Shown here piece by piece: positions 36,251 through 40,439 of a stretch of DNA of 64,000 bases. How positions within the stretch are numbered: the stretch's first letter is position 1; each line of letters opens with the position of its first letter. A program made the position numbers and the translations under genes. This stretch comes from Dictyostelium discoideum. Its lineage: Eukaryota. The DNA is taken from positions 960,001-1,024,000 of the forward strand of contig CM000151.3 in the NCBI GenBank assembly GCA_000004695.1, in the 5' to 3' direction. Under the pieces are notes generated by a model. It saw only the letters and a list, made by a program, of their open reading frames with translations. It ran no database searches and had not been told where the DNA came from.

Positions 36251-36562
36251 TTATTTATGAAAATTGAAAATATTTATACTAATTCCACTCAATTTTGGAG
36301 ATCGAAAAAAACAAACAACAACAACAATCTCTTTTTTTGATTATTTCATTTTTCATATAAAAAAGACTTAAAAAACAAATAAATAAATAAATAAACTATT
36401 TTAAAAAGCCATCTTTTTACTTTATTGTAATTTATTATTTGTTTCGTTTTGAGAATTTTGCGTAGCAAAATTTTCAAAAAAAAAGCAAAAAATAATCAGA
36501 TCGAAAAAAACAAACAACAACAATCTCTTTTTTTGATTATTTCATTTTTCATATAAAAAAGA

Positions 36563-36596
<34 letters not shown>

Positions 36597-36674
36597 TGGG
36601 AACCCAAGTTAATCAGAAAATTTCCAGATTTTTAACTTTTTAAAGAAAAATAAAAAAAATAGAAAGAAAATAAG

Positions 36675-38009
36675 ATGAAAATCACAAACAACACCACAAA
36701 TATTAAGCAACACAAATGCCTACAAAAAATAAGCGAAATTGTGGATAAAACTCAATTAAAAAAAAAACAATTCAAATACGTCATAAACATCAATCACGAA
36801 CCAGACGATAAAATAAAAAAAGATTTAGAAAAAAGTTTGGACAAAAAAGATGTTTTAATCAAAAGTAATAATACATTCAAAATTCTCACAGACAGTATTA
36901 GTACAGTAATCTATTTTGTAAATATGTTTGATGCAGAATTAAAAGGACAATTTATAACCACTATAAGACCAAAAAATATGTATACAGATTTTGATTGGTA
37001 TAAATCACTCACAGAAATAGAATGGGTAATAGAAAATGAAGGATGTAAACTAATTAAATTAGAAATTAAAGGCGAAACTCTAATTATCAAAACAGTGAAA
37101 AGAGTCGTAGAAGAATTTGACACTATCATTGAACTAGACAATCTAACATTAATTGGACACTCCAACAAAGGATGGAGAGATCAAACCTCATTACCAGAAA
37201 ATCAAGAAGAAAACAAAAATAAAAAACAATCAGATGAACAACAACCACAATCTACATCAGAACAAATACCAAAACAAGGAAAAAGAACAATCATTATCCC
37301 ACCAATCACATCCTCATCTAATGATAAAACATTTATGGCCCTAGATGATCCAGCTCAAAAGGTAATAGAAGCATCACTAGAAAACGTAGATGAACTAACA
37401 AGAATAGAGAATGAGATCAATACACAATCGATAAACAATCAAGAAATTAAAACAAAATCAGAAAAACCTATTGAACCACCATCTCCATACAATACACCAA
37501 TAAAACAACACGGCGAAACAAAGAGACTAACAACGGAAGAAAAACTTATAGAGGCAAATGATATCTTCGACTTCACCAGCCCAAACACTGATGCAATAAG
37601 AAAAATAGAATTCCCACTTTCAATCCCTTCAAATCAATGGTTCTTCTCCTCTCCAATAAAACATATCATGAGTTTCAGCCCAACCTATGGTACACCATCG
37701 AAAATTATCGATTCACCAAGTAAATTGTTAAACACACCAAAAAAGAAACAACAAGACAAAACAAACAAGACCAACAAAACACCAGTCAAACCAAAATTGG
37801 GTGAATATGGACAAAAAAGCATAAAAACAAAAATGGATGAAGATATAGACAACTTCAACAAGGAAATTCTAAAACAAATCAATAAATCAAAAAACCCCAC
37901 AAACACACAAGACCAACAACACAACGAACAAAGTAAAGATCAGTTAGAAGACAAAATAAACCAGAAACTTCAAAAGGTAGATAAAAATCTACCCCAAATA
38001 AAACTATAA
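36675..38009 (+). CDS. Retroelement ORF1 (444 aa), assigned to TRE5-A from context and memory
   Basis: Intact ORF. It is followed immediately by the start of an ORF2 frame (38010-38290) that is cut off by poly(A) at 38300. Confidence 0.55.
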   Translation: MKITNNTTNIKQHKCLQKISEIVDKTQLKKKQFKYVININHEPDDKIKKDLEKSLDKKDVLIKSNNTFKILTDSISTVIYFVNMFDAELKGQFITTIRPKNMYTDFDWYKSLTEIEWVIENEGCKLIKLEIKGETLIIKTVKRVVEEFDTIIELDNLTLIGHSNKGWRDQTSLPENQEENKNKKQSDEQQPQSTSEQIPKQGKRTIIIPPITSSSNDKTFMALDDPAQKVIEASLENVDELTRIENEINTQSINNQEIKTKSEKPIEPPSPYNTPIKQHGETKRLTTEEKLIEANDIFDFTSPNTDAIRKIEFPLSIPSNQWFFSSPIKHIMSFSPTYGTPSKIIDSPSKLLNTPKKKQQDKTNKTNKTPVKPKLGEYGQKSIKTKMDEDIDNFNKEILKQINKSKNPTNTQDQQHNEQSKDQLEDKINQKLQKVDKNLPQIKL

Positions 38010-38305
38010 AGAAAAACACAATAAGAATAGGTGTTTGGAACGTCCAAGGATCCAACACCATCCAATCTGCCAGCATAATAAACACCGTTTTAGACAACAA
38101 CAAGCTGGACGCAGCACTTCTAACTGAAACAAATATAAAAACAAATAAAATTTACTCAATAAATCAACAATATAAAAACAAAATAACACACCACGCACCA
38201 ATTGATAAAACAGGACAAGGGGTGTCACAAATCATCATCAACACCCGCAATAGAACTTCCTAAACATCTCAAAAAATACAATAATTCACTCAGTACTTTC
38301 TATAA

Positions 38306-38363
<58 letters not shown>

Positions 38364-38364
<1 letters not shown>

Positions 38365-38592
38365 CAAGTTAATCAGAAAAATAAAAAAGATAGAAAGAAA
38401 ATAAAATGAAAATCACAAACAACACCACAAATATTAAGCAACACAAATGCCTACAAAAAATAAGCGAAATTGTGGATAAAACTCAATTAAAAAAAAAACA
38501 ATTCAAATACGTCATAAACATCAATCACGAACCAGACGATAAAATAAAAAAAGATTTAGAAAAAAGTTTGGACAAAAAAGATGTTTTAATCA
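38364..38592 (+). mobile_element. 5'-truncated second copy of the ORF1 leader and N-terminus, in tandem behind the poly(A)
   Basis: 38364-38592 is near-identical to 36603-36865. ORF 38406..38606 duplicates the first 62 aa of ORF1 and then breaks into the 105-bp unit. Confidence 0.7.
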
Positions 38593-39096
38593 AAAAGACC
38601 CTGTAAAAAAAAAAAAAAAATAAAATGAGATCTAGCATCTCAAGGAGAAGCAAATAATAATTGCGTTATCCAATTCAAAAAAAAAAAACCACTCAATTTT
38701 GGGTTAAGCAAAAATCTCCTCGGACATGTACAACCAGGCCAATAAGTATCGCAACTAAAAAAACTCCGAAATGAGGGATTATAATATATCATCGATCTGG
38801 GGAGTAGTTTTCAAAACTTTCCGACGGCACAAACGGCCGACAGGACACCCGGCACGGCACAAGCGAAGCCGTTGGTTAGTCAGACACTGCAACAGTAAAC
38901 ATGTGGCACACTGGCGAGACACTTCAAGTAACGGGAAGGAGGCTGGTGCCTCTGGGCCGACGCACTCGCACAAAGTTAGTCGATAAAAGTAAAAATATAT
39001 ATAAAGACGAATGGCGAGTGAGTGGCGCGAGAGATGAGAGCGAGTTTCGGTCACGAAAGTGGCTTAAGGTTTCACCGATGAATGGAGGTTGGGTAG

Positions 39097-39321
39097 TTGT
39101 CGCACCATCAACTTCAAGACCCGCCATACTGTCGCTGCATAGACTACATACAGGAGAAAAGTGGAGGTTCCAAGATTGCGTGGGGAATTGAAATTCTCAA
39201 CAAATTGGATATTTCATTAACAGCCAATGCAATAGCCATTATAAGCGAAAACATCTGGTGCAGAAGAAACAAAAAAGTTCATGAAGGAATCACCCTCAAA
39301 AATCCAAGAAAGGTTATTTAG
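39097..39321 (+). CDS. Fragment resembling the C-terminal (RNase H-like/Cys-motif) end of a non-LTR ORF2
   Basis: ...AWGIEILNKLDISLTANAIAIISENIWCRRNKKVHEG... has the W.RN..VF/HEG-type ending seen in L1-like ORF2 C-termini. It is followed by an AT-rich 3' UTR and poly(A) at 39541. Confidence 0.4.
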   Translation: MSHHQLQDPPYCRCIDYIQEKSGGSKIAWGIEILNKLDISLTANAIAIISENIWCRRNKKVHEGITLKNPRKVI

Positions 39322-40439
39322 TAATTTATGAACTTAAAAACTCAATACGCGGCGTGGGAGAGAACCAAAAACAACATATACAAACTAATTAGAGATGAAA
39401 AAAAAGCCACAAACAACGAACAAGCCAAAAAATTCAAATCCATCATATCCAAACAACTCGAGAGATTTAGCAAAAATTGGAACTCTCCAATCCACTCTGT
39501 AACACTACCAACAAATCTCAACAAATATACCACAACACTCACTAAAAAAAAAAAAAAAAAAAAAAAAAAAACTACACCTTAAAAGGCACCTGTAAACTAA
39601 ATAATAAAATGAGATTTATCTCAAGAAGAAGCAACTAATAATTGCGTTATTCCATTCAAAAAAAAACCACTCAATTTTTTCAAACGAAATTCAAGACACA
39701 ACACTTAATAAAAAAAACAATTAAATTATGTCATCACATCAATCACAACGAAGCCGACAATAAAAAAGATTTAGAAAAAGAATTTTTGATCAAAAGTAAT
39801 AATACAATTCAAAATTCGAAACAAAAAAAAAAAAAAAAAAGGTAAACTAACCCCTCTTATAGAGACCCTATAAAAAATACTACAAATAAAATGGGATCTA
39901 GCATCCAAGGAGAATCAACTAATTATTGAGTTATCCAATTCAAAAAAAACAATCAGATTTTACCGATAATCCATTTTCATATAATAAATATTTTAAATAA
40001 ACTAATGGATTTTAATTTTTAAAAACAAATAGGCTAAAAACTGGAATTTTTACAAAAAATAAAAATATAATAATTTTATTATTTTCTAAAATTAAAACTC
40101 ATTAATAAAAACTTTTATTTTCTTCAACTCTTTTTATCAAAAAAAAACCTTTAATAAAATTAAATTGTATAATATAATTATATTATTTAATAAAAGACTA
40201 TTGCTTAAGATTTTTGATTTTCCAAATAATAAATTTATTTTTAAAAAAAAAAAAAAAAAAAACCATTCGCCCTATCTGGACAACATTTAAAAAAATTAAT
40301 AAAATAAAAATCATTATGAAATAAATATTACAATTTAAAATTAAAATCCAAATTTGGATTAAAAAAAAAATTTTAAAAAAAATCATTTTAAGTTTTTAAA
40401 AATTAAAAGAAATTAATTAATTTATTTAAATTTATTCAT

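Follow-up and report, generated by a model that had tools for sequence, protein, structure and literature searches.

TRE5 retrotransposons are found with the element 5' end always towards a tRNA gene and ~50 bp upstream of it (PMC3159450), and the primary site of TRE5-A is placed at −47±3 with −47 named in PMC5391098. TRE5-A.1 has the layout AB-ORF1/ORF2-BC (ORF, open reading frame), in which a 290-bp B-module holding the ORF1 start codon is duplicated from the 5' untranslated region (UTR) to the 3' UTR, and TRE5-A.2, with the layout AB-ORF1-BC, has lost a large part of ORF2 and a further 72 bp across the B/C border, so that only the last 87 bp of its C-module are present (PMC3159450). TRE5-C has no 3' B-module, its C-module and the one of TRE5-A share 78% identity over the terminal ~87 bp, and the terminal stem-loop region measures 51 nt compared with 54 nt in TRE5-A (PMC3159450). 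Of 98 occupied tRNA genes, 91 were targeted again by a tagged TRE5-A, and TRE-TRE tandems, arranged head to tail with none inside another and the newest at approximately −47, have already been described (PMC5391098). The analysis presented here concerns such a locus in Dictyostelium discoideum, located in a stretch of 64 kb (contig CM000151.3 of assembly GCA_000004695.1, positions 960,001 to 1,024,000, termed the window). Three non-long terminal repeat elements, termed e1, e2 and e3 from the tRNA gene outward, are arranged head to tail and all point away from the minus-strand gene tRNA-Gly(GCC) (Table 1). The locus shows no difference from the published tandems and is an ordinary known structure, constituting a three-deep case that mixes two TRE5 families.

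A tandem TRE5 array at tRNA-Gly(GCC)

The tRNA gene's 5' end (36250) and the first nucleotide of e1 (36297) are separated by 47 bp, and the element's 5' end faces that of the tRNA gene. Each of the three elements is uninterrupted through to its A-tail, is flanked by target-site duplications (TSDs) and is not inserted into its neighbor. The TSD is the 12-mer CCACTCAATTTT, of which the 64-kb window contains exactly three copies (TSD copies 0, 1 and 2 in Table 1), compared with 0.03 occurrences expected by chance and with none of 100 shuffles reaching three. Every copy has an oligo(A) tail or the tRNA spacer immediately before it and the 5' end of an element immediately after it. An A-tail of its own and an exact 12-bp target after each element are the expected trace of three independent target-primed insertions, and it is very likely that the array is a TRE-TRE tandem in which three TRE5 elements inserted independently and successively at the one tRNA-Gly(GCC) site. 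A first-pass annotation of this DNA had proposed successive insertions ~50 bp upstream of the same tRNA, and this part of its account is borne out by the 47-bp distance and by the same 12-bp duplication bracketing each element. Arrays of the form TSD-element-TSD-element-TSD are also present at other tRNA genes of related genomes (loci L004, L005 and L007).

Published TRE5-A work supplies the order of events, the target-primed reverse transcription and the TFIIIB targeting in the scheme that follows, into which the anatomy, TSDs, distance, orientation and family affinities observed here are placed. Each TRE5 insertion would proceed by target-primed reverse transcription at the same staggered-nick site, at approximately −35/−47, with the site measured from the tRNA gene and with recognition of TFIIIB/TFIIIC via the ORF1 protein as attributed in the literature. 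Each newcomer would therefore land on the tRNA-proximal TSD copy, re-duplicate the same 12 bp and shift the older copies outward, and the outcome would be the order TSD-e1-TSD-e2-TSD-e3-TSD' with the youngest element closest to the tRNA gene. A gradient of decay directed outward agrees with this order, as e1 is intact, e2 carries stop codons, e3 is 72–74% identical to the B-module and the outer TSD is degenerate. The identical 12-bp duplications imply nick positions identical to the nucleotide, which illustrates the precision of targeting in three independent events involving two TRE5 families.

Several points weigh against this interpretation. The outermost TSD, CAATCAGATTTT, is a weak match to CCACTCAATTTT, and one or two G residues at the 5' junction of e1 can be assigned in more than one way, as non-templated, as belonging to the A-module or as shared with the 5' GGG of e2. 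The families are assigned by published structural descriptions and by homologous copies in other assemblies rather than by TRE5-A.1, TRE5-A.2 and TRE5-C consensus sequences, and it is decay, not dating, that gives the order of insertion. By its sequence and placement CAATCAGATTTT is probably a decayed fourth TSD copy closing the array.

An alternative in which the whole array arose in one retrotransposition, from a composite complementary DNA (cDNA) made by template switching among several TRE5 RNAs, draws on the visibly modular nature of TRE5, on the existence of recombinant or chimeric copies and on the leader/ORF2 junction in e2, which looks like a switch product. It is nevertheless highly improbable, as a single event would give one A-tail and one TSD pair whereas here there is an oligo(A) and an exact 12-bp copy for each unit, and the 12-mer is target sequence with its first copy adjoining the unique tRNA spacer. 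Template switching, raised in the first-pass annotation for the region as a whole, is therefore set aside for the array, where TSDs and A-tails lie between the elements, and is live only for the junction of the leader and ORF2 tail in e2. Nesting, with later copies inside earlier ones and splitting them, had also been suggested. A precedent is provided by L005, where the TSD of the tRNA-proximal element (GTTCAAAACCATCC, L005:6263-6276 and 7053-7066) takes in the first 13 nt of a resident 5'-truncated leader, indicating that a newer copy is able to land just inside an older, shortened copy sitting closer than −47, and in the window the TSD of e1 may take in the first one or two G of e2. However, no interrupted element is present in the window. 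All three elements run unbroken from 5' end to A-tail, and e1 keeps the canonical order B-ORF1…B-C, so the elements are tandem and nesting deserves very little credence. Least credible of all is a scenario in which one element was multiplied at the DNA level, by tandem duplication or unequal crossing-over, and deletions came later, and for which the three 3' units and TSDs would serve as direct repeats able to support unequal recombination, because three different lineages and structures (C-modules only 72–85% identical, a non-A lineage ORF2 tail in e2, and a leader in e2 and not in e1 or e3) cannot be derived by duplication of one copy. The array is best described as a textbook case of how TRE5 elements integrate at fixed positions in the compact genome of Dictyostelium, and as given it matters little beyond that.

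Table 1. Coordinates of the tRNA-Gly(GCC) locus, its TRE5 array and related modules at other loci; positions without a prefix refer to the window
Feature	Position	Strand	Remarks
402-aa ORF	34788-35996	minus	Flanks array on tRNA side
External B box (GGTTCGATTCC)	36138-36148	minus	Read on minus strand; 32-42 nt downstream of tRNA-Gly 3' end
tRNA-Gly(GCC)	36180-36250	minus	ARAGORN; Rfam tRNA, 63.6 bits; integration landmark, 5' end towards array
TSD copy 0 (CCACTCAATTTT)	36285-36296	plus	−35 to −46 relative to tRNA 5' end
e1, complete TRE5-A.2 by layout, 2392 bp	36297-38688	plus	AB-ORF1-BC
A-module and partial second A copy	36299-36494 and 36495-36565	plus	Direct repeat; plus-strand promoter region
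Internal A29 run	36566-36594	plus	Between A- and B-modules
5' B-module, ~290 bp	36595-36885	plus	ORF1 start codon at 36675; repeated at 38363-38596
ORF1, intact, 444 aa	36675-38009	plus	96-99% identical to D. discoideum AX4 proteins P0002-P0006
ORF2 remnant	38012-38307	plus	First ~78 codons (endonuclease N terminus) joined near 38245 to last ~20 (…LPKHLKKYNNSLSTFYK*)
Internal A55 run	38308-38362	plus	Border of ORF2 end and 3' B-module; A33-A37 at same border in L002, L004
3' B-module	38363-38596	plus	~30 bp shorter than 5' copy; ends at TRE5-A.2 BC deletion
C-module 3'-terminal part and A12 tail	38597-38676, tail to 38688	plus	80 nt of C kept
TSD copy 1	38689-38700	plus	Exact 12-mer, e1/e2 border
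e2, short TRE5-C-type element, 966 bp	38701-39666	plus	Without B-module
GC-rich 5' leader of e2	38701-39135	plus	46-52% GC; begins GGGTTAAGC, ends …CCATACTGTCGC
ORF2 C-terminal tail of e2	39136-39543	plus	Decayed, non-A lineage; in-frame stops at 39322-39327
Internal A28 run, C-module (39572-39657) and A9 tail	39544-39666	plus	
TSD copy 2	39667-39678	plus	Exact 12-mer, e2/e3 border
e3, old 5'-truncated TRE5-A remnant	39679-39949	plus	BC layout as in TRE5-A.1 copy L007
Parts of e3	39679-39822; A18; 39841-39941; A8	plus	Partial 3' B-module; A-run; full-type C-module; tail
Probable decayed outermost TSD (CAATCAGATTTT)	39950-39961	plus	7/12 positions match ungapped, ~10 with two gaps
Cytidine/dCMP-deaminase-like gene	40440-41189	minus	Flanks array on far side
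tRNA-like heads	L002:6794-6925; L004:6797-6927; L001:7798-7927; L006:5711-5727		
Leader copies	L001:7928-8366; L002:6941-7366; L003:6942-7366; L004:6928-7366; L005:7067-7390; L006:5726-6058		

The DNA is AT-rich across the window and the tRNA-Gly(GCC) gene, in which the sequence of the published D. discoideum primer Gly(GCC)rev is present, is the single tRNA gene there. It shares with the repeats one intergenic gap, between the 402-aa ORF and the cytidine/dCMP-deaminase-like gene. For 66% of D. discoideum tRNA genes an external B box is reported ~41 bp downstream (PMC3159450), and a corresponding box is located in this gap (Table 1). Self-comparison of the 64 kb revealed no TRE copies beyond the array, with only poly(A) noise elsewhere.

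Elements e1 and e3 and the shared 3' end

Judged by its sequence, e1 fits every published feature of TRE5-A.2, namely the layout, the ORF2 deletion, the BC deletion, the −47 position and the orientation, and nothing substantive differs when the two are compared by structural description rather than against a reference sequence. The A-module is directly repeated with a period of 196 bp and 92% identity (36299-36395 compared with 36498-36591), and the whole 269-nt arrangement of 1.4 A copies aligns end to end with the D. discoideum copy L007:4616-4888 at 97.8% identity. The 5' B-module is 86–99% identical to the B copies of L002, L004, L005 and L007, and the A- and B-modules taken together are 98–99% identical to those of L007. 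For ORF1, identity to AX4 proteins amounts to 98%. Self-comparison identifies the duplicated B-module, with 99% identity over 221 nt between 36644-36864 and 38375-38595. In alignment, the ORF2 remnant matches L001:9732-9966 and L001:13095-13152, corresponding to a deletion of ~3128 bp (~3.1 kb), and its C-terminal peptide is identical to that of P0015, the representative of an abundant cluster of D. discoideum ORF2 tails. The deletion at the B/C border removes the last 27 nt of the B-module, the A-run and the first ~22 nt of the C-module when compared with the TRE5-A.1-type BC of L007 and with e3. No Pfam family was assigned to ORF1, to the ORF2 remnant or to P0001. The element is intact and probably still mobilizable, and like TRE5-A.2, a derivative of TRE5-A (DRE), it is non-autonomous.

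A smaller difference between the two B copies of e1 is that the 3' B-module (38363-38374 compared with 36595-36643) lacks the first 8 nt and an internal stretch of ~30 bp (TTTCCAGATTTTTAACTTTTTAAAGAAA…) present in the 5' B-module. The 3' B copies in Dictyostelium cf. discoideum keep the internal stretch (TTTCCAGATTTTTAACTTTTTAAAGAAA…) that is missing from e1.

The e3 element is divergent from e1, with 72–74% identity in the B-module and 85% in the C-module.

The 3' regions of the three elements form related units of ~95–105 bp (38597-38700, 39572-39678 and 39841-39961; pairwise BLAST E ~1e-22), in which the C-module cores are 72–85% identical. These were recognized in the first-pass annotation as a 105-bp junction unit, with which each piece was thought to start. 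The unit is the 3' part of the C-module together with the oligo(A) tail and the 12-bp TSD, and is thus the obligatory 3' end of the elements rather than their start; this also settles whether it represents the start of the A-module or the C-module, an alternative posed at the time, in favor of the C-module 3' end. Nor do all units end in ccactcaatttt as had been stated, since the third ends in CAATCAGATTTT and the first ccactcaatttt, next to the tRNA gene (36285), belongs to no unit. The related repeat units, the direct repeats of the A-module and the full ORF1 that the annotation listed are real, but its dissection was over-fragmented, and there are three elements and not five or six fragments. 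What had been taken for an ORF2 start cut off by poly(A) is a deletion within ORF2, joined near 38245 and followed by a conserved internal A-run, and positions 38363-38596, read as a second 5'-truncated copy that restarts in the ORF1 leader, are the canonical 3' B-module of e1. Several of the poly(A)-terminated pieces prove to be bounded by internal A-runs (36566-36594, 38308-38362, 39544-39571 and 39823-39840). Colinear alignment with a single known element had been named as the outcome that would speak against nesting, and positions 36297-38688 are indeed colinear with the single type TRE5-A.2, while the whole array comprises three elements.

Internal A-runs occur at the same module borders in other genomes, where the ORF2 stop is followed by A33-37 and the B-module, and the B-module by A17-29 and the C-module. 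In the D. cf. discoideum copies L002:8529-8600 and L004:7843-7925 a long (TAA)n microsatellite, absent from the window copies, separates the A-run of the B-module from the C-module. The end of the C-module can be modeled with three helices, and across seven distinct copies 100% of cells are paired in the model, with two predicted compensatory double changes, one in e2 (GC to AU) and one in e3 (GC to UA).

The e2 element and the constant boundary of its leader

The e2 element differs from e1 and e3 in its modules. Alignment of the e1 and e2 C-modules gives 63 identical columns of 82 (76.8%), with e2 being 3 nt shorter in the terminal hairpin region. No B homology is present within 38701-39666, and the ORF2 tail is followed directly by the A28 run and the C-module, which is 96.7% identical to that of L006, a second e2-type element. 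The homology to ORF2 begins only at 39136 (CIDYIQEKSGG…), with 73–75% amino acid identity to AX4 DDB_G0293280 and 44% identity to the TRE5-A-like ORF2 of L001. An exhaustive protein search with cluster look-up separates two lineages of D. discoideum ORF2 tails, an abundant one ending …LPKHLKKYNNSLSTFYK and a rarer one ending …LPSNLNKYITSLNTLY. The ending of the abundant lineage is identical to that of the e1 remnant, which identifies it at the sequence level as TRE5-A, and the e2 tail (…LPTNLNKYTTTLT) falls in the rarer lineage. By the published criteria, applied as a description and not as a consensus, e2 is of TRE5-C type, sharing with TRE5-C the C-module of ~77% identity, the hairpin region shorter by 3 nt, the lack of a 3' B-module, the location upstream of a tRNA gene and the rarer non-A ORF2 tail. 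It differs from TRE5-C in having neither ORF1 nor most of ORF2.

The 5' part of e2 is formed by the GC-rich leader, which is 88% identical to 5' leaders in L001 to L006 (L001 to L005 are from "Dictyostelium cf. discoideum", GCA_054859235.1, and L006 is from another D. discoideum assembly). The conservation of the leader is discordant with that of the adjoining sequence, with 88% identity maintained between lineages whose ORF2 tails are 44% identical. Its 3' end is constant, …CCATACTGTC(G/A)C (…CTGTCGC), in eight copies from two genomes, among them the window and L001 to L006, and is joined to seven different partner positions. Expressed on L001 these are 8366, 12341, ~12413, 12943 and 13028, and on the tail of the e2 lineage they are position 1 (window) and position 250 (L006). 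The partner in L001, an apparently autonomous element with an ORF1 of 489 aa and an ORF2 of 1142 aa containing an RVT_1 domain, is ORF1 codon 6, and those in L002 to L005 are four different positions in ORF2. Directly before the donor sites an A-run followed by C is present in five of six cases, with the full AAAAC preceding ~1% of positions in that region; the leader junction in the window is the exception to this pattern. No solo leader is present among the seven loci. An Rfam search of the window at E≤1 returned only the tRNA gene and no match to the leader, and the folding energy of the leader is not unusual (z = −0.87).

Splicing was considered as the cause of the constant junction and rejected, as the leader boundary is not followed by GT and the donors have AC, not AG, before them. 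The leader was likewise rejected as a coding gene; an ORF of 71–73 aa survives two compensating frameshifts and looks like an artifact of gene prediction. This ORF (window 38771-38986; L001:8001-8219) seeded the annotated "hypothetical proteins" P0007 to P0012, including AX4 DDB_G0268912.

Complete leader-bearing copies have a tRNA-like head of ~128 nt before the leader. In L001, L002 and L004 the head contains an A-box-like motif TAGTGCAGTGG at nt 9–19 and a B-box-like motif GGTTCGATACC at nt 52–62, and L006 has the first 16 nt. In L002 and L004 the head follows the TSD directly and begins ~47–49 bp upstream of the target tRNA gene; in L006 the distance is exactly 47 bp. The head is called a tRNA by neither ARAGORN nor Rfam. 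The e2 element of the window has no head, indicating that it is 5'-truncated. The TSD copy at 38689-38700 resembles the last nucleotides of the head, L001:7912-7927 (CACTGCTCATATTGAT; 13/20 aligned positions), which may reflect microhomology in the joining of the truncated e2 cDNA, or chance. The copies L002, L004 and L006 resemble tRNA-derived short interspersed nuclear elements (SINEs) in combining a tRNA-like head with putative A and B boxes, an unrelated body and the 3' tail of a long interspersed nuclear element (LINE). They differ in that the head is not recognized as a tRNA by ARAGORN or Rfam, that e2 in the window is headless and that the RNA polymerase III promoter is putative.

Two readings of the leader junction are considered. 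In the first, e2 is a TRE5-C copy with an ordinary internal deletion and 5' truncation, the boundary shared with other loci being due to one deleted master or to selection for the leader. Deletion derivatives such as TRE5-A.2 are known and have been amplified from masters, and in L001, which is apparently autonomous, the leader serves as the regular 5' UTR; this keeps the reading plausible without making it probable. It is opposed by the seven partner positions and two ORF2 lineages that adjoin one leader 3' nucleotide (…CTGTCGC), and by the finding that none of six deleted copies keeps even a few nucleotides of ORF1. One master cannot explain the differing 3' breakpoints, and selection for the leader would not bar breakpoints within ORF1.

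In the second, the constant leader end with variable partners suggests module capture by template switching of the reverse transcriptase. Template-switch LINE chimeras are known as U6/L1 in mammals and as MINE/WEIRD-MGL in Magnaporthe (PMC2104539, PMC4476161). They consist of a 5' partner with a fixed end and a variably truncated LINE part, with one A-tail and one TSD pair, and the constant acceptor end, variable donors and single TSD pair of each chimera described here resemble this arrangement. Unlike those chimeras, the e2-type leader is also the 5' UTR of the apparently autonomous L001. It is accordingly offered only as a tentative and rather doubtful proposal that the leader is a discrete SINE-like 5' module with a tRNA-derived head, repeatedly joined at a fixed 3' nucleotide to truncated TRE5 RNAs by template switching, which may follow pausing at A-runs. 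The novelty of the proposal may hinge on whether or not the leader is the published 5' UTR of TRE5-C. If template switching is the source of the junctions, TRE5 5' ends would evolve by module capture and e2-type copies would be newly made SINE-like chimeras of a LINE that targets tRNA genes. Dictyostelium, for which TRE5-A retrotransposition assays exist, would then provide a compact and genetically tractable system in which to address how LINEs gain new 5' promoters and how SINE-like non-autonomous elements arise.

Further rearranged copies are present at the loci compared. In the D. discoideum copy L007:4921-5811 the A- and B-modules (to B position 177) run straight into a leader fragment (positions 26–115), followed by an ORF2 tail of TRE5-C type and a C-module, and this copy is another inter-family recombinant. 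P0026 suggests a further fusion of the B-module to a TRE5-C tail. The full-length element in L001 is interrupted at its 3' B-module by another repeat (L001:13172-13300), which is 100% identical to L003:9411-9529, and the repeat loci in L001 and L003 both adjoin Ty3/gypsy-type genes.

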